DNA of 64,000 nucleotides from Bacilli bacterium. Its GTDB lineage: Bacteria; Bacillota_I; Bacilli_A; RF39; UBA660. The translations under genes were made by a program, and so were the position numbers. The notes beneath the pieces were generated by a model. That model was not told the origin of the DNA, made no database searches, and was given only the letters and a program-made list of their open reading frames with translations. The DNA is taken from assembly GCA_017528315.1 (NCBI GenBank), contig JAFXOW010000003.1, positions 95,222 through 159,221 on the forward strand, given 5' to 3'. Below are positions 21,156-49,288 of this stretch, piece by piece. Positions within the stretch are counted from its first letter, which is position 1. The number at the start of each line of letters is the position of its first letter.

Positions 21156-22856
21156 CTATTCTATTTCTACAATTTCTGTTCCAAAAGCATCAAGTGCTTT
21201 ATCAACTAAATTAGTATAACTTAAATCTTCTTTTTTTTCAATTATTTCTTTATAATTTATAAATGGTTTAATTTCCTCTTTATATTCATAATAACCATCA
21301 TCTTTCATATGTTCTTTATAATTATTAACTTCTATTTTAAATTCATCTGTCGTTAAAAGAACTATTTTAATACTATTTTCCATAATTTTACTTATTAGTT
21401 CTATAACTTTATCAAAATTACTATATATATCATCTATCAAAGTATCATACTTTGCTGTTAAAATTATATTATTTTTACTTACTACTCCAATAGTTGTATC
21501 TTTTAACAAACCCGCAACATAAGAATATTCTGTAGATACTAAATAATCATCTAATTTTTTCCACTTATCAAGAGCAATATTTTTTAACATCTTACTGGCA
21601 AGAGCAAAAGTATTATTTATTCTAATTTTTTTTGTGTCTAAATCAACACTATATTTCAGAATTTTATTTTGGCTGTTTTTTTCTTCTTTTTTTATGTTTT
21701 TAATTTCAACTGTTGGTCTACTTTCTTTATTTACAACCAAGTCATGAGATATTTCTCGGGAAATATTGCTTGGAGACTCCTCCACCACTTCTGTAGCAAA
21801 AAAGCTTTTTTTAGTCTCGTTAAAAGCATTCATAAATTTTAATAATTTTACTTCAACAATTATCTTTCTATTAATTGCTTCTTTTAAAAGATTATATATT
21901 TCATTAAAACACATTATTAAATTATATAATTCATGTGGATCAAGAGATTTATCTGATTTATCTTGATAACAGAAGACCATTAAATCTCGACATTCTTGCA
22001 TAAGTTTTTCCAAAAGTTTAGAAAAATCATATCCTAATTCATCAAACTTATTTAATGTTTTTATTACCTTTTCATTTTCTTTATTTATAATTTGTTTAAT
22101 AAACTCATCCATATCCTGCTTTGAAATAAGTCCATTTATTTTTAAAAAATCATTAGTAGTAATTTTATTAAGCGAATAGGATGCTAATTTATCAAGCATT
22201 CCTAAAGCATCTCTTAACCCTCCTTCAGAGTACTCGGCTATTTCATGAATTGCTTCATCTTCTATGTTAATATGTTCTAAATCTGCTATTTCACGAAGTC
22301 TATGCTCAATACTACTAGTTTTAATTCTTGTAAAATTCAAGCATTGGCATCTTGATATAATTGTCGTGGGAACTTTATAAAATTCCGTAGTTGCCAATAT
22401 AAAAATAACATGACTGGGAGGTTCCTCAATAGTTTTTAAAAGAGCATTAAAAGCACTTATAGATAACATATGTACTTCATCGATTATATAGACTTTATAT
22501 TTTAATTTATTTGGTACTAAATTTATTTTACTTTTTAGGTCTCTTATTTCATCTACTCCATTATTACTAGCAGCATCTATTTCTATTATATCAGGACTAT
22601 TATTTAAAATATCTAAGCAATTCTCACATTTACCACACACCGAAAAATCATCATTTAAATCTAAACAATTAATCGTTTTAGCTACTAATTTAGCAATGGT
22701 TGTTTTTCCTGTTCCTCTAGGTCCCGAAAACAAATAAGCATGTGATATATGCCCTTCTTTTAAGGAATTAGTTAAAATTTTCAAAGTATTTTCTTGATCA
22801 ACTACATCACTAAATTTTGTTGGTCTATATTTACGATATAAGGCTAGATATTCCAT
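21156..22856 (-). CDS. dnaX: DNA polymerase III subunit tau
   Basis: GPRGTGKTT Walker A, zinc module CGKCENC, DEVHMLS and SRC. Confidence 0.95.
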   Translation of the reverse strand: MEYLALYRKYRPTKFSDVVDQENTLKILTNSLKEGHISHAYLFSGPRGTGKTTIAKLVAKTINCLDLNDDFSVCGKCENCLDILNNSPDIIEIDAASNNGVDEIRDLKSKINLVPNKLKYKVYIIDEVHMLSISAFNALLKTIEEPPSHVIFILATTEFYKVPTTIISRCQCLNFTRIKTSSIEHRLREIADLEHINIEDEAIHEIAEYSEGGLRDALGMLDKLASYSLNKITTNDFLKINGLISKQDMDEFIKQIINKENEKVIKTLNKFDELGYDFSKLLEKLMQECRDLMVFCYQDKSDKSLDPHELYNLIMCFNEIYNLLKEAINRKIIVEVKLLKFMNAFNETKKSFFATEVVEESPSNISREISHDLVVNKESRPTVEIKNIKKEEKNSQNKILKYSVDLDTKKIRINNTFALASKMLKNIALDKWKKLDDYLVSTEYSYVAGLLKDTTIGVVSKNNIILTAKYDTLIDDIYSNFDKVIELISKIMENSIKIVLLTTDEFKIEVNNYKEHMKDDGYYEYKEEIKPFINYKEIIEKKEDLSYTNLVDKALDAFGTEIVEIE

Positions 22857-31681: not shown

Positions 31682-33052
31682 TTAAGAAAGATTATTTTTT
31701 ATTTTTTCAACAGTTTCCCTAATACTCTTGGTTGATTTAATATCACTTTCTATTTTTTCACATGAATGCATTACTGTTGAATGATCCCTTCCTCCAAATT
31801 CTAGTCCGATTCTTTGATAAGATTCATTTAATACATCCCGGGATAAGAACATAGCAATTTGTCTTGGAAAAGCTACACTTGAACTTCTCTTTTTTCCTTT
31901 TAAATCATCAACGGATATCTGGAAAAAGTCTGCAACAACTTTTTGAACTTTTGATATATTGGTTTTTTCACTAGTTCCTTTATTAATAAATTCCCTTAAA
32001 GCATCAACAGCTAAAGATAAATTTATTTCTGCTCCTCCCATAATGGTTGAATATGCAAGAAGTCGATTAATTGCCCCTTCTAATTGTCTAACGTCACTTG
32101 TCATATTGGAAGCAATATATTCTAAAACATCATCAGGAATATCTTTAACTATCTTATTTCCCTCAATTTTTTTCTTTAATATATTAATTCTAAGTTCCAA
32201 ATCAGGTGGATAAATATCAACAGTTAATCCCCAACAAAACCTCGTTCTAAGTCTATCTTCTAATAACTTTAAATCATTTGGTGATCTATCAGATGAAATT
32301 ATTATTTGTTTTTTATCTTGGTGAAGCGAATTAAAAGTATGGAAAAATTCTTGTTGAGTTTGGGTAGCTCCTGCTAAAAATTGTATATCATCAATGATTA
32401 AAACATCTATATTTCTATATTTATCTTTAAAATATTCAACATAATTATATTCTGAATTTTCTTTAATAGAGTCTTTTCTCGCAATACCGGAAAAATCCGA
32501 AATAAATTGCTCACTAGTAACGTATAAAACACGTTTATTGCTATTTTGTTGAATGTAATTTCCAATTGATTGCATTAAGTGAGTTTTACCAAGTCCACTA
32601 TTACCATATATAAATAAGGGATTATAAGTTAGACCTGGTGATTCAGCAACTGCTAAAGCCGCCGCATGTGCAAGTTTATTACTATTTCCCACAATAAAAG
32701 TATCAAAAGTATATTTAGGATTTAAATTAGATTCATGTTTAAATTTATGCTCTGAAACATTAATTGAATTATCTATAACATTAACTGTTTCTTGATTATT
32801 TTTTATTTCTTGTTCTAGAATAAACTCTAATTCATAAATATTACCTGTTATTTTGGTTAAAATACTGGTTATTAAATCGTGATAAATGGTACTTAATCTA
32901 TTTTTATGAATATCTAAAGGTACCACAATAGTTGCCTTATTATTATTAATAGATAAAAGGTAAGTTTTACTAAACCATGTTGAATAAACCATTGAATTTA
33001 CACTACTTTTAACGTTCTCTAAGAACTTGTTCCAAAGTAGTTCATTGCTCAT
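31682..33052 (-). CDS. dnaA: Chromosomal replication initiator DnaA
   Basis: Walker A GNSGLGKTHL, Walker B IIDDIQF and domain IV RDHSTVMH. RBS GGAGGTGG. Confidence 0.97.
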   Translation of the reverse strand: MSNELLWNKFLENVKSSVNSMVYSTWFSKTYLLSINNNKATIVVPLDIHKNRLSTIYHDLITSILTKITGNIYELEFILEQEIKNNQETVNVIDNSINVSEHKFKHESNLNPKYTFDTFIVGNSNKLAHAAALAVAESPGLTYNPLFIYGNSGLGKTHLMQSIGNYIQQNSNKRVLYVTSEQFISDFSGIARKDSIKENSEYNYVEYFKDKYRNIDVLIIDDIQFLAGATQTQQEFFHTFNSLHQDKKQIIISSDRSPNDLKLLEDRLRTRFCWGLTVDIYPPDLELRINILKKKIEGNKIVKDIPDDVLEYIASNMTSDVRQLEGAINRLLAYSTIMGGAEINLSLAVDALREFINKGTSEKTNISKVQKVVADFFQISVDDLKGKKRSSSVAFPRQIAMFLSRDVLNESYQRIGLEFGGRDHSTVMHSCEKIESDIKSTKSIRETVEKIKNNLS

Positions 33053-33486: not shown

Positions 33487-34530
33487 ATGAAAAATTTAAA
33501 TGCTGAGGCTTTTTCAAACACTAACAAAAGAAATAAAATATTATTAATATGTGGATTAATTTTATTAGTATTAACTATTTTACTTATATATTTAGGAATA
33601 GAGAATGAGAAAAAACCAATGCCGGAACTTACAAGTTTAAATAATTTTATAAGTGAGGGAAATAATAAAGAAAATGTATATACTTATGCTGATATTAATG
33701 TTAAACCTTATTTATTTGCTGTTTATGAAACAGATGGAGTTGAAGAAGAAGCTAAATATTATTTAGGAATGGATAAAGAAAATCATTTATATATTTTATA
33801 TATGAAAGAAGATAAATATAATGAATTGAATGTCGATACAATTGAAGATACTCCAATTAGAGTAACTGGACTTACTAAGTTAATATCTGAAGATATAAAA
33901 GAAATAGCTATTGAATCATACAATGAACTAATGGAAGATGAATATTTAACTAAAGATAATTTTATAGATTATGTTGGATCAGTTTATTTAGATATGAACT
34001 CACCTATTAATGATTCATCACTTTATTACCTAGGAGCATTTTTATTAGGATTCTTTGGTTTATTAATTATAACAATTTATATAGTTATAATAATAAAAAA
34101 TAAAAGAACCTTTAAAAACATTAAGGAAATAGAACTAGCTAATATTGATGCTGAATTATCAGGTATGGAATCAAGTGAATATGCCAATATGAAATTTTAC
34201 TTATTAAAAGACTATGTTGTTGATATGGGAAATAATGTTATTATATTAAGATATAATGATATATTATGGGCTTATCCATATGAACAAAGATATAATGGAC
34301 TACTTATAAATAAATGTATAAAATTAACTGATATAAACAATAAGAAGTATGATGTTGCAAGTACAAAATTACTTAATAAAAAGAAAGATGAAGTTTTACA
34401 AGAAATACTTCAAAAATTAAAAGAAAAAAATAAAGATATAATTATAGGATTTAATAAAGAAAATAAAAAGCAAGTTAAAGAAAAAATAAAGGAAAATAAA
34501 AGAGAAAAAAATAAAATAGAGAAAAAATAA
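33487..34530 (+). CDS. Hypothetical two-TM membrane protein with a Lys-rich C-terminal tail
   Basis: Promoter TTTACA-17-TAGAAT and RBS AAAGGAG. TM segments at about residues 17-37 and 180-203. No recognised motif. Confidence 0.6.
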   Translation: MKNLNAEAFSNTNKRNKILLICGLILLVLTILLIYLGIENEKKPMPELTSLNNFISEGNNKENVYTYADINVKPYLFAVYETDGVEEEAKYYLGMDKENHLYILYMKEDKYNELNVDTIEDTPIRVTGLTKLISEDIKEIAIESYNELMEDEYLTKDNFIDYVGSVYLDMNSPINDSSLYYLGAFLLGFFGLLIITIYIVIIIKNKRTFKNIKEIELANIDAELSGMESSEYANMKFYLLKDYVVDMGNNVIILRYNDILWAYPYEQRYNGLLINKCIKLTDINNKKYDVASTKLLNKKKDEVLQEILQKLKEKNKDIIIGFNKENKKQVKEKIKENKREKNKIEKK

Positions 34531-41185: not shown

Positions 41186-41629
41186 ATGAAAGAATATATA
41201 GTTAAAGAAATAAAACCAGGAAAATATGAATATGGATATAGAATCCAAAAATTAGATATAGAATTAATGATAGAATTTGGTATAAATTTACCAAATACCT
41301 TAAAAGAAATATATGGTAATGGCTTTGAAGAACAAGAATTAGCAGAGTATATCTATATAAATGATCCAGTAACAGTAGAGTTTATTAAAAGACAATATTA
41401 TATAAGAGAATATGCAGAATTTTCTAATATGAATATTTATGAATTAGAATTATTGACTAGTTATTATAATAAAAAATTAAGTGAATTAAGATATAAATTA
41501 AGTATAGAAAAAAATAAAGATGAACTAAATAATATAAAAACAGATATAAATATTTTAATAAATGAAATGTTAAGTATTACATATTTAAAAGAATTTCTAA
41601 TAAAGGAAAATAAAGAAAATAAAAGATAG
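41186..41629 (+). CDS. Hypothetical 147-aa protein inserted between mnmE and mnmG
   Basis: Tightly packed ORF, 4 nt after the mnmE stop and 11 nt before mnmG, with RBS GGGAAGTGA. No motif recognised. Confidence 0.5.
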   Translation: MKEYIVKEIKPGKYEYGYRIQKLDIELMIEFGINLPNTLKEIYGNGFEEQELAEYIYINDPVTVEFIKRQYYIREYAEFSNMNIYELELLTSYYNKKLSELRYKLSIEKNKDELNNIKTDINILINEMLSITYLKEFLIKENKENKR

Positions 41630-44200: not shown

Positions 44201-44343
44201 AAATGTTAATTATTTATAGAATAATTTGACATTTTTTTCTTTGGGAAATTACTTTTTATAAGGAATTTAAAAAAAAATAATTGTATTTTTAAAAAATGTG
44301 ATATAATAATTATGTGTTGAGGGGAAATAATTGTTGGAGTGTG

Positions 44344-46548
44344 ATGTTGATGAATGAAGAAAGCGAAAATCAAGTTGTTAATTTAAGAATAGATGATATA
44401 ATTCCTAATAGATTTCAACCTCGGGAAATATTTGATGAATCAGGACTAGAAGAATTATCAGAATCCATTAAAGAACATGGTGTCATTCAACCTATAATTG
44501 TCCGACAAGTTGGAGATAAGTATGAACTGATTGCTGGAGAACGAAGAACCAAGGCATCATCTTTAGCTGGATTAACTACTATACCTGCAATAATACGCAA
44601 TATGGACGATAAAGAGTCTGCTAAAGTATCCTTGCTTGAAAATTTACAAAGAAAGAATTTAAGTGCCATTGAAGAAGCTAGAACGTATAAAAGAATTTTA
44701 GAAATTGATAATATGACTCAAGAAGATTTAGCTAGAAATTTGGGAAGAAGTCAACCGATGATTGCCAATAAACTTAGGCTTTTATCACTTCCTGATGAAA
44801 TACAAGATGCTTTAATGAAAAATCAAATATCTGAACGGCATGCAAGAAGTTTATTAACAGTTAAAAATAAAAAAGATCAATTGATGTTTTTAGATAGAAT
44901 AATAAATGAACGATTAACAGTTCGAGAACTGGATAAAGAATTAAAAAAATATAAAGAAAATCCTCAAAGTAATGATGATCCAATGCCAGAAGAAATATTA
45001 TCGATAGATGATGAAGATTCGAAAAAAGAAAATAATAAAGGAATAGAAGAGAGTAATGAAAGGAGTTTTATGAATAATAATATAGGAAATTTTGGAGGAA
45101 TGGGATTAAACGATTATAATAACGGAGCAAATAATAATATGTTTTATAACGTTCCTAATAATTTTAATAATATGCCAAATATGAATAATAGTATGAATAA
45201 TTCAAATATTAATTATAATAATTTTGATGAAGAACCAGAAGATAATGAAAATGTTCAAAATGATTATTTTGCTAATATGAATAATAATCAAAATAATAGT
45301 TTTAATCAAAATCAAGAAAGCTCACTAGGATCAATGTTTGATAATTATAATGGAGAAAATAATAATTTACAAAATGATAATAATTCTAATTTATTTGTAA
45401 GTCATATAAGAGAAGATAATTTACCAAAGGTAGAAAATCAATTTTTACCTAACTTTGATAATTTTAATAATAATGAATCAAATAATGATGATGATACCAG
45501 AGAGGCTTTAAATAATTTTAATCAAAATAATGATTTTAATGAACAAAACAATTATAGTTTAGATACTAACAATACTATGATGAATAATGATTTTAACATG
45601 AATAATAATTATCATAATAATCACATGAATGATATGAATTTTAATCAATTATCTGGTATGAATAATTTAAATAATTATAATCAGAATAATTATTCAACCC
45701 CTAATAATATGATGAATAATAATTTTGGAATGAATAATGGTTTTGATTATAATAATAATCAATTTAATATGCCAAATATGAATAATACGAACAATTTAAA
45801 TTCTAATCTTCCAAATAATAACTATTTTATGAATGATTTGAATAATAATTATATGAATAATCAAAATGGAATGAGTAACAATATGAATAATAATATGGGT
45901 TCGAATTTCTACAATAATATGTGGAATAATAATTTAAATCCAATGACTCAACCAATGAATAATAATCCAATGAATAGTTCTAATTTTAATAATTATAATA
46001 ATTCTCCTATAGATTTTTCTCAAAATATAAATCCTGAAGTAAATATGTATCAACCAAATCAAGGTGGACTATTTAGGCAACCATTAAATATTGTTGATGT
46101 TCCAAATAACAATTATGTACCTTTAGAAAACAATACTTATGAAGAACAACCAAGTAATATAGAAAATGATAATTATATGTTAAATAATCAACCACTACCA
46201 AGTGAAGAATTTGAAGAAAATGAATTAAATGAACAATTAAATAATGTAGAACCAAAAGAAGAAACCAATATACCTGAAATAGAAGTAATTGGAGAAACAA
46301 CTAAAGAAGATGAAGTTAAAGAAGAAAATACTGTACAAGATGATGAAACTAAAGAAGAAACTAAACAAAATGATTATATTAATTTAGATCCAGTTTATAC
46401 AATAAATTCAACAATGGATGCCGTTTTAGAACTAAAAAAGACAACTGATAGAATTAAACAAAACCATATTGATATTGAAACGGAAGAAATAGATTTCGAT
46501 GACGTATATCAAATAACTATTAAAATTAAAAAGACTGATACACTCTAA
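44344..46548 (+). CDS. noc: Nucleoid occlusion protein Noc (ParB family) interrupted by an Asn-rich low-complexity insertion of about 470 aa (the ORF track starts at GTG 44314; ATG 44344 or 44350 is more likely)
   Basis: ParB N-domain IPNRFQPREIF...HGVIQPIIVR...LIAGERR, HTH LTQEDLARNLGRSQPMIANKLRLL and ISERHARSL. It sits after rsmG and before soj-spo0J. The C-terminal 59 aa are again ParB/Noc-like. Confidence 0.85.
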   Translation: MLMNEESENQVVNLRIDDIIPNRFQPREIFDESGLEELSESIKEHGVIQPIIVRQVGDKYELIAGERRTKASSLAGLTTIPAIIRNMDDKESAKVSLLENLQRKNLSAIEEARTYKRILEIDNMTQEDLARNLGRSQPMIANKLRLLSLPDEIQDALMKNQISERHARSLLTVKNKKDQLMFLDRIINERLTVRELDKELKKYKENPQSNDDPMPEEILSIDDEDSKKENNKGIEESNERSFMNNNIGNFGGMGLNDYNNGANNNMFYNVPNNFNNMPNMNNSMNNSNINYNNFDEEPEDNENVQNDYFANMNNNQNNSFNQNQESSLGSMFDNYNGENNNLQNDNNSNLFVSHIREDNLPKVENQFLPNFDNFNNNESNNDDDTREALNNFNQNNDFNEQNNYSLDTNNTMMNNDFNMNNNYHNNHMNDMNFNQLSGMNNLNNYNQNNYSTPNNMMNNNFGMNNGFDYNNNQFNMPNMNNTNNLNSNLPNNNYFMNDLNNNYMNNQNGMSNNMNNNMGSNFYNNMWNNNLNPMTQPMNNNPMNSSNFNNYNNSPIDFSQNINPEVNMYQPNQGGLFRQPLNIVDVPNNNYVPLENNTYEEQPSNIENDNYMLNNQPLPSEEFEENELNEQLNNVEPKEETNIPEIEVIGETTKEDEVKEENTVQDDETKEETKQNDYINLDPVYTINSTMDAVLELKKTTDRIKQNHIDIETEEIDFDDVYQITIKIKKTDTL

Positions 46549-46560
46549 TCAGTTTTTTTC

Positions 46561-46589
46561 TTGCAATTAAGCTTTCTTTCTGATAGAAT
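46561..46589 (+). promoter_or_regulatory. SigmaA-type promoter that would give a leaderless mRNA for the HExxH protein
   Basis: TTGCAA (46561-46566), a 17-nt spacer, then TGATAGAAT (extended -10, hexamer 46584-46589). The ATG at 46597 lies 7 nt after the hexamer and no SD lies between them. Confidence 0.5.
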
Positions 46590-46596
46590 ACAAGCC

Positions 46597-47496
46597 ATGA
46601 AAAGAGATAATATAGATAGAGTAAAGACTTTAATAATAGAATTTATAAAAATAATGGAAGATAGTTTATCAAAAGAAGATTTAATAATGATAATTAATAA
46701 TTTTAATACTTTGAATATCAAATTTAAAAATTATAAAATAACAAATTTTCTTTTTTTAGATAATACTGTTGGTGGTTATAATCCTTTAAACAATACTTTG
46801 ATGTTAGATATAAATAATTTTGAATCAACAATATATCATGAATTATTTCATGTAGCATCATCAAAAAATTATTTAAATAAAATATTAATATCAGGATTTC
46901 ATTTAAATAAAATATCTTTAAATAATTCTAAACATACAAGATCTATTGGAATTGGAATAAATGAAGGATACACTCAGTATTTAGCAGAAAAATATTTTAG
47001 TAATAAAAAATATATAATGTCTGCCTATAGATATCAAGTAAATGTTGCAAAATTAATTGAAGAGATAATTGGAGAATATAAAATGCAATCTTTGTATTTT
47101 CATGCCAATTTAATGGGCTTAATTAATGAATTAAGTTTCTATAATGATTACGATAAAGTTATGGAATTCTTAACTCAATTGGATTTTTTACATAGAAAGT
47201 TATCTTACACTAATATTAATTTAAAAGAAAAAAATACAATTATAAATATTTTTTGTAAAGTTCATGTTTTTTTAATAGAAACCTACTTGTATAAATTATT
47301 AGAAGAAATAAAAATTTATAATCTTACGGAAGAACAATTTAATATAAAAGTATTAAATTTTATAGAACAAATTCCTATAGCAGTTGAAAGTAAAAAAGTA
47401 TTATATGATGAAATCTTAACACATGAATTAATAGAAAAAACTATAGAAAGAATATGTATAACAAATGATAGAAAAGATGTGGTTAAAATAATTTAG
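46597..47496 (+). CDS. Hypothetical protein with an HExxH zinc-metallopeptidase-like motif
   Basis: YHELFHV motif. The TTG start at 46561 in the ORF track coincides with the -35 hexamer, so the ATG at 46597 is preferred. Confidence 0.5.
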   Translation: MKRDNIDRVKTLIIEFIKIMEDSLSKEDLIMIINNFNTLNIKFKNYKITNFLFLDNTVGGYNPLNNTLMLDINNFESTIYHELFHVASSKNYLNKILISGFHLNKISLNNSKHTRSIGIGINEGYTQYLAEKYFSNKKYIMSAYRYQVNVAKLIEEIIGEYKMQSLYFHANLMGLINELSFYNDYDKVMEFLTQLDFLHRKLSYTNINLKEKNTIINIFCKVHVFLIETYLYKLLEEIKIYNLTEEQFNIKVLNFIEQIPIAVESKKVLYDEILTHELIEKTIERICITNDRKDVVKII

Positions 47497-47631: not shown

Positions 47632-48417
47632 ATGGGAAAAATAATATCATTAGTTAATCAAAAAGGAGGGGTTGGAAAAACAACGACTAGTATAAATTTA
47701 TCTGCATCTCTTGCCTTACTAGGGGAAAAAATATTATTAATAGATTTGGATCCCCAAGGAAATGCTACAACAGGTGTTGGAATAAATAAAGGAGATATCG
47801 AAAATAGTATTTATGATTTATTAACCAACAATTGTTCGGTAGAACAAGTGATTTTAAAAACCAATTTTCATAATTTAGATATAATTCCTTCAACTATTCA
47901 GTTAGCAGGAATTGATATAGAGTTTATTGAAAAAAGTAAAAATGATCCAACATTTAAAAGAGCATATCAATTAAAAGAGAAAATAGAAGTAATTAAAGAT
48001 AAATATGATTACATAATAATTGATTGTCCACCAAGTCTTGGGAATATAACAACCAATGCTTTAACTTGTAGTAACTCCGTTATAATACCGGTTCAATGTG
48101 AGTTTTTTGCTCTTGAAGGGATTACACAGTTATTAAATACTATAATGTTAACTCAAAAAAATTTAAATCCCAATTTAGATTTAGAAGGAGTTTTACTTAC
48201 AATGTTATCTAAGTCAAATTTAGGACTTGATGTTATAGAAGAAATCAGAAGTTATTTTAAAGATAGAGTATATGATACAATTATACCAAGGTTAATAAGA
48301 CTAGCAGAAGCTCCAAGTCATGGGAAACCAATTGTAGCTTATGATCCCAAAAGTAAAGGGTCAGAAGCTTATATTAATTTAGCAAAGGAAGTGATTATGA
48401 GAAATGGAAACAACTAG
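47632..48417 (+). CDS. soj: Chromosome partitioning ATPase ParA/Soj
   Basis: Deviant Walker A NQKGGVGKTTT and IIDCPPS. Confidence 0.95.
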   Translation: MGKIISLVNQKGGVGKTTTSINLSASLALLGEKILLIDLDPQGNATTGVGINKGDIENSIYDLLTNNCSVEQVILKTNFHNLDIIPSTIQLAGIDIEFIEKSKNDPTFKRAYQLKEKIEVIKDKYDYIIIDCPPSLGNITTNALTCSNSVIIPVQCEFFALEGITQLLNTIMLTQKNLNPNLDLEGVLLTMLSKSNLGLDVIEEIRSYFKDRVYDTIIPRLIRLAEAPSHGKPIVAYDPKSKGSEAYINLAKEVIMRNGNN

Positions 48418-49288
48418 AAGAAGAGCCTTAGGACGAGGCTTAGAAGAATTATTTAGTGGAGAGGTATTGGATTTTGATAGTTTAGAAGAAAAGATAATTG
48501 AAGAAACGCCTAAAGAAGAAATAATGCAAGTAAAACTTTCAGAATTAAGAAGTAATCCATATCAACCAAGAAAAGTGTTTGATGAAAATGCTTTAAATGA
48601 ACTTGCTAATTCTATAAAGGAACATGGTGTATTTCAACCGATTATAATAAAAAGAAGTATTAAAGGCTATGAAATTGTTGCTGGAGAAAGACGTGCAAAA
48701 GCCAGTAAATTAGCAGGACGTGAGACAATACCAGCAATTGTTCGAGACTTTAATGATCAAGAAATGATGGAGATTGCCCTTCTTGAAAACTTACAAAGAG
48801 AGGATTTAAATCCAATAGAAGAAGCAATGGCTTATCAAAATTTGATGAACTCTCGAGGACTAAATCATGAGCAATTAGCTGAAAGAATAGGTAAAAGTCG
48901 TAGTTATGTAACCAATATGGTTGGACTTATGAATTTGCCTGATTCTGTTAAAGAGTTAGTAATTGCTAAGAAAATATCAGCAACTCATGCTAGAACTTTA
49001 AGTAAAATTAAAGATCCTTTAAAAGTAGAAGAAATGGCTGATAGAATTATAAATGAAGGGCTTACAACAGCAGCAATTGATGAATTAGCTAAAGATAAAA
49101 CAGTTGAAAAACGTAATAAGATGGAAAGAAGAGAAACTGAAGAGAATAGAACTTATAAATATATTCAAGATTTACTATGTGATCGTCTTTCTACTAAAGT
49201 TAGAATTAGAGGAACGAAGATAGAAATTAATTTTCAAGATTTAGAAGATTTTAATCGCATAATAGAAGCTTTAAAATTAGATGAATGA
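48404..49288 (+). CDS. spo0J: Chromosome partitioning protein ParB/Spo0J
   Basis: NPYQPRKVF, GVFQPIII, VAGERR and the HTH LNHEQLAERIGKSRSYVTNMVGL. Confidence 0.95.
   Translation: METTRRRALGRGLEELFSGEVLDFDSLEEKIIEETPKEEIMQVKLSELRSNPYQPRKVFDENALNELANSIKEHGVFQPIIIKRSIKGYEIVAGERRAKASKLAGRETIPAIVRDFNDQEMMEIALLENLQREDLNPIEEAMAYQNLMNSRGLNHEQLAERIGKSRSYVTNMVGLMNLPDSVKELVIAKKISATHARTLSKIKDPLKVEEMADRIINEGLTTAAIDELAKDKTVEKRNKMERRETEENRTYKYIQDLLCDRLSTKVRIRGTKIEINFQDLEDFNRIIEALKLDE

Follow-up and report, generated by a model that had tools for sequence, protein, structure and literature searches.

A Noc-type ParB paralogue with a long, acidic, motif-bearing disordered linker in uncultured gut Bacilli

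The noc-like gene and its folded domains

A noc-like gene of the ParB family is located in the replication-origin region of a Bacilli bacterium, on a 64-kb stretch of contig JAFXOW010000003.1 with a GC content of 25.8% (hereafter the window, meaning the whole stretch of DNA analyzed). The host lineage is uncultured gut Bacilli of about 26% GC, once binned as 'Tenericutes'. Gene order across the region was dnaA (31682–33052, minus strand), yidC, jag/khpB, mnmE, mnmG, rsmG, the noc-like gene, an open reading frame (ORF) of 311 amino acids (aa), soj, and spo0J. The noc-like gene comprised the following parts, for which disorder was assessed by the AlphaFold2 (AF2) predicted local distance difference test (pLDDT).

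44350–46548, plus strand: noc-like ParB-family gene, one intact gene encoding 732 aa, followed by a TAA stop
44371–44649, plus strand: ParB N-terminal domain binding cytidine triphosphate (CTP), Pfam PF02195 (ParB_N), E = 4e-33
44653–44955, plus strand: ParB-type helix-turn-helix DNA-binding domain, Pfam PF17762 (HTH_ParB), E = 2e-31
44956–46368, plus strand: disordered linker, residues 203–673 (471 aa), recognized by composition and AF2 pLDDT < 50
46369–46545, plus strand: Noc-type C-terminal (predicted dimerisation) domain, the last 61 aa matching TIGR04285 positions 219–255, E = 9e-4

In the ORF listing the gene ran from a GTG start at 44314 to 46548 (plus strand), giving the 744-aa product of the initial annotation. 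That ORF is present, but its real start is probably ATG 44350, because a GGAG lies 10 nucleotides 5′ of it, the N-termini of homologues correspond, and gene callers on other contigs give 732 aa. Residue numbers herein follow the 732-aa numbering, those of the initial annotation being 12 higher.

The DNA of the gene was identical in contigs of other samples, and the exact protein, listed at NCBI as MBR3660409.1 ('ParB/RepB/Spo0J family partition protein, Bacilli bacterium'), occurred on at least eight contigs, of up to 274 kb, from at least five independent sequencing runs, so that an assembly artefact or frameshift was ruled out. Two fused or unrelated genes were also ruled out, since both ends are of the Noc type and no relative has one without the other, in agreement with the single gene first proposed. 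The coding frame of the linker contained no stops, whereas 1000 shuffles averaged 50 and never gave fewer than 33, and the other five frames contained 25–133. The sole near-identical variant found, G436D, left the length unchanged. Hence, the length instability suggested as a possible effect of the AAT-rich repeats was not seen among strains, and the 'cryptic' repeats themselves proved weak, in that Tandem Repeats Finder returned only short arrays in the linker DNA (2–4 copies, with periods of 9, 12, 21, and 33, all multiples of 3).

Shorter members of the same protein cluster (259, 296, and 469 aa) sit on contigs of 1.1–2.8 kb and look like fragments. Additionally, the nearest database homologues of the N-terminal module (P0001–P0006) were 212–236 aa long, most on contigs of 1–10 kb, and stopped exactly where the low-complexity linker starts. 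Short-read assemblies or gene calls thus seem to break frequently at the linker, leaving database entries systematically truncated at about 215 aa.

The N-terminal ParB/Noc module described in the initial annotation was recovered in full. ParB_N and HTH_ParB fell within the first 202 residues, together with GERR (44536–44547) and ISERHARSL, and the CTP motifs QPR, GERRxRA, and ENLQR were all present, with no variation seen in two alignments, of 83 and 64 relatives. The protein scored 184 bits against TIGR00180 (cut-off 58), and its best Foldseek matches were Noc and ParB structures. The resemblance of the last 59 aa to Noc, suggested from the letters of the sequence, was borne out by the TIGR04285 match listed above. 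This C-terminal domain is the predicted dimerisation domain; it was nearly invariant within the clade and was modelled as one helix and two strands, with a pLDDT of 91–94 in a first AF2 run and 61–75 in a second.

Several comparisons placed the protein with Noc. The best NCBIfam family was Noc itself, TIGR04285, with 278 bits for the native protein and 296 bits for a linker-removed construct that matched positions 1–255 of 255. A PDB search gave 205 and 184 bits to Noc and 175 bits to Spo0J, whereas the neighbouring Spo0J had the reverse pattern (201 bits to Spo0J, 156 to Noc). The modelled DNA-binding domain matched that of 6Y93, the complex of Noc with its Noc-binding site (NBS), at a template-modelling score of 0.91–0.93. 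Moreover, the gene order rsmG-noc-soj-spo0J and the presence of a separate ParB in the genome were confirmed, with one species-specific ORF between noc and soj.

The residues that set DNA specificity in Noc are Q173, K179, K184, and R201 (PMC7383237), a Q-K-K-R pattern that reads Q135 (44752), K141 (44770), S146 (44785), and R163 (44836) in the window protein. Q, K, and R at three of these positions were invariant in the 83 and 64 relatives, while position 184 (Noc numbering) varied. A mutational scan found that NBS binders require Lys or Arg at 179, 184, or both (PMC7383237).

With the Noc proteins of Bacillus subtilis and Geobacillus thermoleovorans (7OL9, 7NFU, and 6Y93), the window protein thus has in common its gene position after rsmG and before soj-spo0J, the CTP-binding N-terminal domain, the Noc-type C-terminal domain, Q/K/R at three of the four specificity positions, and a canonical NBS sequence in genomes related to that of the window. 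It differs in having Ser at position 184, in its TIGR04285 scores, and in its N terminus. It also differs in its connector, which in B. subtilis Noc is basic and about 20 residues long and here is acidic and 471 aa long. With Spo0J/ParB (6SDK, and the window gene at 48404–49288) it shares ParB_N and HTH_ParB, the CTP motifs, and a C-terminal dimerisation domain, but its specificity residues are Noc-type, it has no LGRGL ParA-interacting peptide, and its linker is giant.

The N-terminal difference concerns the membrane anchor of Noc, an amphipathic membrane-targeting helix accompanied by helix alpha2 (PMC8429893). Neither element was present in the noc-like protein, in which only 18 residues precede PNRFQPR and leave no room for them. 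The corresponding segment was at most 24 residues in 80 of 80 related species, whereas B. subtilis Noc has about 40, and the alignment to the Noc structures 7OL9 and 7NFU began at chain residues 22–26. The tethering of DNA to the membrane, which the initial annotation had carried over from Noc, should therefore not be assumed for this protein. Because the helix is absent and both TIGR04285 scores fall below the curated cut-off of 315 bits, we class the protein as a Noc-type paralogue of ParB in which one feature that defines Noc is missing.

Length, motifs, and composition of the linker

The linker was compared across 80 species-level genomes of uncultured gut bacteria labelled 'Bacilli', 'Tenericutes', CAG:417, CAG:710, and Candidatus Onthousia. 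In these, the orthologue was 335–755 aa long and its linker 80–496 aa, with a median of about 212 aa; among related gut Bacilli overall, linkers spanned 80–560 aa. The eight closest species, with N-terminal domains 79–84% identical to that of the window protein and a GC content of 24–28%, had linkers of 305–495 aa containing 22–28% Asn. When the linker and the C-terminal domain together served as the query, 97 proteins matched; all that were full-length belonged to the ParB family (541–824 aa) and the rest were fragments, so that no other protein family was found to carry the linker motifs. About 90 protein clusters had giant Asn-rich linkers with the same invariant motifs in a fixed order. 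The linker is thus lineage-specific and variable in length (proteins of 335–824 aa between species), both of which the initial annotation had raised as points to check, but it is no sporadic split of a Noc, the long linker being the norm across a large clade.

The linker, described as low complexity, is not featureless, since it contains these motifs. In an alignment of 64 proteins, 50–63% identical overall, they formed islands that were invariant or at least 90% conserved. The motifs and the two compositionally distinct parts of the linker were as follows.

45091–45117, plus strand: M1, FGGMGLNDY (pattern F..MGLNDY), residues 248–256; M, G, L, D, and Y invariant in 64 relatives
45322–45342, plus strand: M2, SLGSMFD, residues 325–331; at least 90% conserved, F 60–90%
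45388–45459, plus strand: M3, NLFVSHIREDNLPKVENQFLPNFD, reading S.IRE (M3a) and then eNqFLPNFd (M3b); motif residues 351–370
45592–46008, plus strand: most Asn-rich and least charged spacer, residues 415–553, with the strongest prion-like composition, in the hypervariable spacer from M3 to M4
46057–46095, plus strand: M4, NQGGLFRQPLNIV (NqG.lF.QPLNIV), residues 570–582; G, F, and L invariant
46210–46368, plus strand: Glu-rich acidic linker tail, residues 621–673, with EVIG and a degenerate copy of DDxYENILFAKPV
residues 676–685: motif Yi.l....Ti, leading into the C-terminal domain

Spacing was tight at some intervals and loose at others. The distance from M3a (S.IRE) to M3b (FLPNF) was 14 aa as both median and minimum, and that from M2 to M3a was about 29 aa. 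The DNA-binding domain and M1 were separated by 36–140 aa, M3b and M4 by 61–251 aa (212 in the window protein), and M4 and the C-terminal domain by 72–250 aa.

Two AF2 runs with different alignments gave confident folded domains and a pLDDT below 50 over residues 210–676. The sole secondary structure predicted in the linker was a 3-residue helical turn (residues 326–328) in the second run. A cryptic folded domain in the motif-rich part was unsupported, the pLDDT remaining below 50 even with the 64-sequence clade alignment. Because the linker stays at this level, we regard the islands as short linear motifs, with the chain that carries them being disordered. Resemblances of M4 (Q-G-x-L-F) to a sliding-clamp-binding motif and of M3 to an FtsZ-tail-like motif are not claimed, both being too short, and in M4 Gln is also less conserved than Gly and Phe. 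A further linker motif, D/N-L/I-D/N-x-L-L (for example ADLDALLNL), was found in 31 of 79 relatives, mostly in those with linkers of 80–240 aa. It may be the counterpart of the DDxYENILFAKPV of the giant-linker clade, of which the window protein carries a degenerate copy (FEENELNEQLNNVEP).

The Asn-rich insert reported at 44953–46368 was confirmed as the linker at 44956–46368, in which 156 of 471 residues (33%) were Asn, as was the acidic, Glu-rich stretch said to follow its Asn-rich part (residues 621–673). Lys plus Arg made up 2.8% of the linker and Asp plus Glu 15%, for a net charge of -57. In 59 relatives, Lys plus Arg was 2–5.8% and net charge ranged from -27 to -88. Asn-rich inserts as a habit of the whole proteome were ruled out for the window, where none of the 51 other ORFs exceeded 19 Gln/Asn (Q/N) per 80 residues and background Asn was 7.6%.

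Candidate binding sites and neighbouring genes

Searches for sites that such a protein would recognize gave different results in the window and in its relatives. The window contained a single NBS-like site, a level of similarity reached in none of 100 shuffles.

21750–21765, no strand: candidate Noc-binding site TATTTCTCGGGAAATA, one mismatch to the 16-bp NBS, inside dnaX

Among the 80 related genomes, 11 had a perfect 16-bp NBS (TATTTCCCGGGAAATA) between mnmE and mnmG, in genomes of about 25–37% GC. In these loci (L008, L009, L011, L012, L013, L020, L030, L033, L036, L041, and L080) the site was at approximately 1070–1390 of the locus, just 5′ of promoter-like elements of mnmG, and belonged to a 24-bp palindrome, AAATTATTTCCCGGGAAATAATTT. 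Its place in front of the mnmG-led gene string, to which noc belongs, raises the possibility of autoregulation or of a conserved origin-proximal loading site. In the window, there was no NBS-like site 5′ of mnmG, and a 147-aa ORF without a family match (41186–41629) fills the space.

The paralogous partition gene was canonical.

48404–49288, plus strand: paralogous canonical Spo0J/ParB, 294 aa, with a short linker and an N-terminal LGRGL peptide

This Spo0J has R, M, N, and T at the four specificity positions; Thr or Ser at position 201 went with dual specificity in the published mutational scan (PMC7383237). No match to the parS consensus TGTTTCACGTGAAACA within two mismatches was found in the 64-kb window or the related loci, despite the presence of Soj and Spo0J, and no repeated palindrome containing GC was found as an alternative site.

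The 311-aa ORF between the noc-like gene and soj (46561–47496) has an HELFH motif of the HExxH type and no match in Pfam, NCBIfam, or PHROGs. It was confined to contigs of the same species and was present in 0 of 80 related loci, which ruled it out as a conserved partner, and it looks like a species-specific insertion in an otherwise conserved noc-soj junction. Finally, three ORFs without a Pfam match at E < 1e-5 were located in the conserved rnpA-yidC-jag-mnmE region.

33487–34530, strand not stated: ORF of 347 aa
36813–37613, strand not stated: ORF of 266 aa
37726–38637, strand not stated: ORF of 303 aa

A proposed docking-motif tether and the alternatives to it

The reading that we favour, with a probability of roughly 0.6, is that of a Noc-type ParB paralogue that would load as a CTP-dependent clamp at NBS-type sites, without the membrane helix and with a long, acidic, disordered tether that bears motifs. 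The NBS-type DNA-binding domain, the intact CTP motifs, and the conserved dimerisation domain together point to clamp loading at NBS-like sites as the predicted activity. The short connector between the DNA-binding and C-terminal domains would have grown into the present tether, and, with two acidic tethers in each dimer, the clamp would be larger, looser, and held away from DNA. M1–M4 and the other invariant motifs may dock a partner or fold back onto the protein's own domains, and such putative docking motifs may stand in functionally for the membrane anchor that was lost. The spacers would owe their Asn to AT-biased mutation and in-frame slippage, a mutational supply that we infer to be filtered by selection against basic and aliphatic residues (Lys, Arg, and Ile), which would keep the resulting acidic tether soluble, negative, and non-sticky to DNA.

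A comparable arrangement is the C-terminal linker of FtsZ, a disordered tether, highly variable in length and sequence, that joins the folded core to a conserved interaction module and in which length and flexibility matter more than sequence. Both are disordered, variable tethers; the proteins are unrelated, and the noc-like protein has conserved motifs not only at the end of the tether but also within it.

A number of observations weigh against Noc identity or against this interpretation. Neither the native protein nor the linker-removed construct reached the TIGR04285 cut-off, the Lys at position 184 that is near-universal in characterised Noc is Ser here, and the absence of the membrane-targeting helix and helix alpha2 counts against Noc identity. 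The AF2 monomer did not dock the motifs onto the folded domains. The window has a single, imperfect NBS and none was found in the 8.6-kb loci of the eight closest relatives, so that NBS binding is attributed to the giant-linker subgroup by extension from relatives farther away. Met reached 7% of the linker against a background of 2.2%, which AT bias does not explain, and the Asn-rich spacers passed the prion-like composition tests described below.

One alternative is neutral expansion, in which the whole linker would be tolerated junk from AT-biased slippage that merely connects two domains. Over the 80 species, the share of Asn in the linker correlated negatively with flanking GC content (Spearman -0.53) and positively with linker length (0.58), and in the window protein Asn was encoded by 144 AAT and 12 AAC codons. 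The in-frame micro-repeats, the enormous length variation between species, and the predicted disorder agree with this idea as well. However, M1–M4 were as conserved as the catalytic core among the 64 aligned proteins, motif order was fixed, the interval from M3a to M3b was typically 14 aa, and the frame was open over 471 codons. Moreover, Lys and Ile made up 2% and 3% of the linker, against 9.7% and 10.1% in the window background, although AT bias would enrich both, such that a composition set purely by AT bias was ruled out; the depletion of Lys, Arg, and Ile runs counter to AT bias alone. We therefore consider neutral expansion of the entire linker unlikely.

It is similarly improbable that the protein is no nucleoid-occlusion factor but a KorB-like, NBS-binding regulator of the mnmG-rsmG-noc operon or of origin-proximal DNA, its acidic tail being regulatory or partner-recruiting. 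Such a role would agree with the lack of a membrane-targeting helix in all 80 species (0/80), with the impaired occlusion of B. subtilis Noc without its helix (PMC8429893), and with the perfect NBS directly 5′ of the mnmG promoter region in 11 relatives, mnmG being the head of the noc gene string. It agrees less well with the window, where the only NBS-like site was inside dnaX and none lay 5′ of mnmG, or with the match to KorB, which was far weaker than that to Noc, and a single site per 8.6-kb locus is uninformative on genome-wide distribution.

The third alternative, and the one suggested by the initial annotation, is a prion-like or condensate domain, in which the Asn-rich segments would self-associate as amyloid or liquid condensate, alter higher-order clamp assembly on DNA, and perhaps act as a switch that is inherited or responds to the environment. 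By its Q/N count the linker qualifies. At the Michelitsch-Weissman threshold of at least 30 Q/N per 80 residues, 308 windows passed over residues 224–616, with a maximum of 43. A re-implemented PAPA-type score, indicative only, reached 0.158 against a threshold of 0.05, which was exceeded over residues 253–295 and 415–553 and also in all eight of the closest relatives; 175 positions of the window protein lay above it. Uncharged runs extended to 58 aa, the core at residues 429–554 contained two charged residues, and the enrichment in Met, Phe, and Tyr favours aggregation.

The bacterial precedent cited for such a domain is real: an Asn-rich insertion in Rho of Clostridium botulinum forms amyloid, and a disordered region in Rho of Bacteroides thetaiotaomicron phase-separates (PMC11347177). 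Like the linker, these are lineage-specific, biased, disordered regions in a conserved nucleic-acid-handling protein of low-GC gut or anaerobic bacteria, with a predicted prion-like character. The linker is in another host protein and at another position, and it is much longer, strongly acidic, and equipped with invariant short motifs.

A prion switch nevertheless seems doubtful. The net charge of the whole linker, and of linkers throughout the clade, opposes aggregation, and the most prion-like spacer, that from M3 to M4, is the least conserved in sequence and length. Furthermore, shorter-linker relatives of higher GC content scored negative, and prion-likeness therefore tracks AT content and is not a trait of the family. 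A docking-motif tether agrees better than a prion switch with the strong acidity, the conservation of the motifs, and the association of Asn with low GC; the linker may still contribute to weak multivalent self-association. Also unlikely is a clade that has rebuilt nucleoid occlusion around a Noc without its CTP-gated membrane anchor and with a 300–560-aa acidic, Asn-rich disordered region and invariant docking motifs, division being excluded without direct membrane binding through NBS-nucleated condensates, a steric brush, or a recruited partner, with a prion-like switchable state perhaps added by the Asn-rich spacers of the most AT-rich members.

In the literature that could be searched, no Noc with a long linker and without the anchor was found to have been described. 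The noc-like protein is an undescribed variant of a known protein, real, reproducible, and clade-wide, and is not categorically new. As read here, the clade has kept the NBS-type DNA-binding domain, the CTP motifs, and the predicted dimerisation domain, has dropped the membrane helix, and has gained a motif-bearing disordered tether. It would thereby offer a natural experiment on Noc-type clamps without membrane binding and on the effects of connector length on ParB-family clamps. M1–M4 provide concrete peptides for partner searches in an uncultured gut lineage with reduced genomes, and the case illustrates how AT mutational pressure may make an ordinary disordered linker look prion-like.

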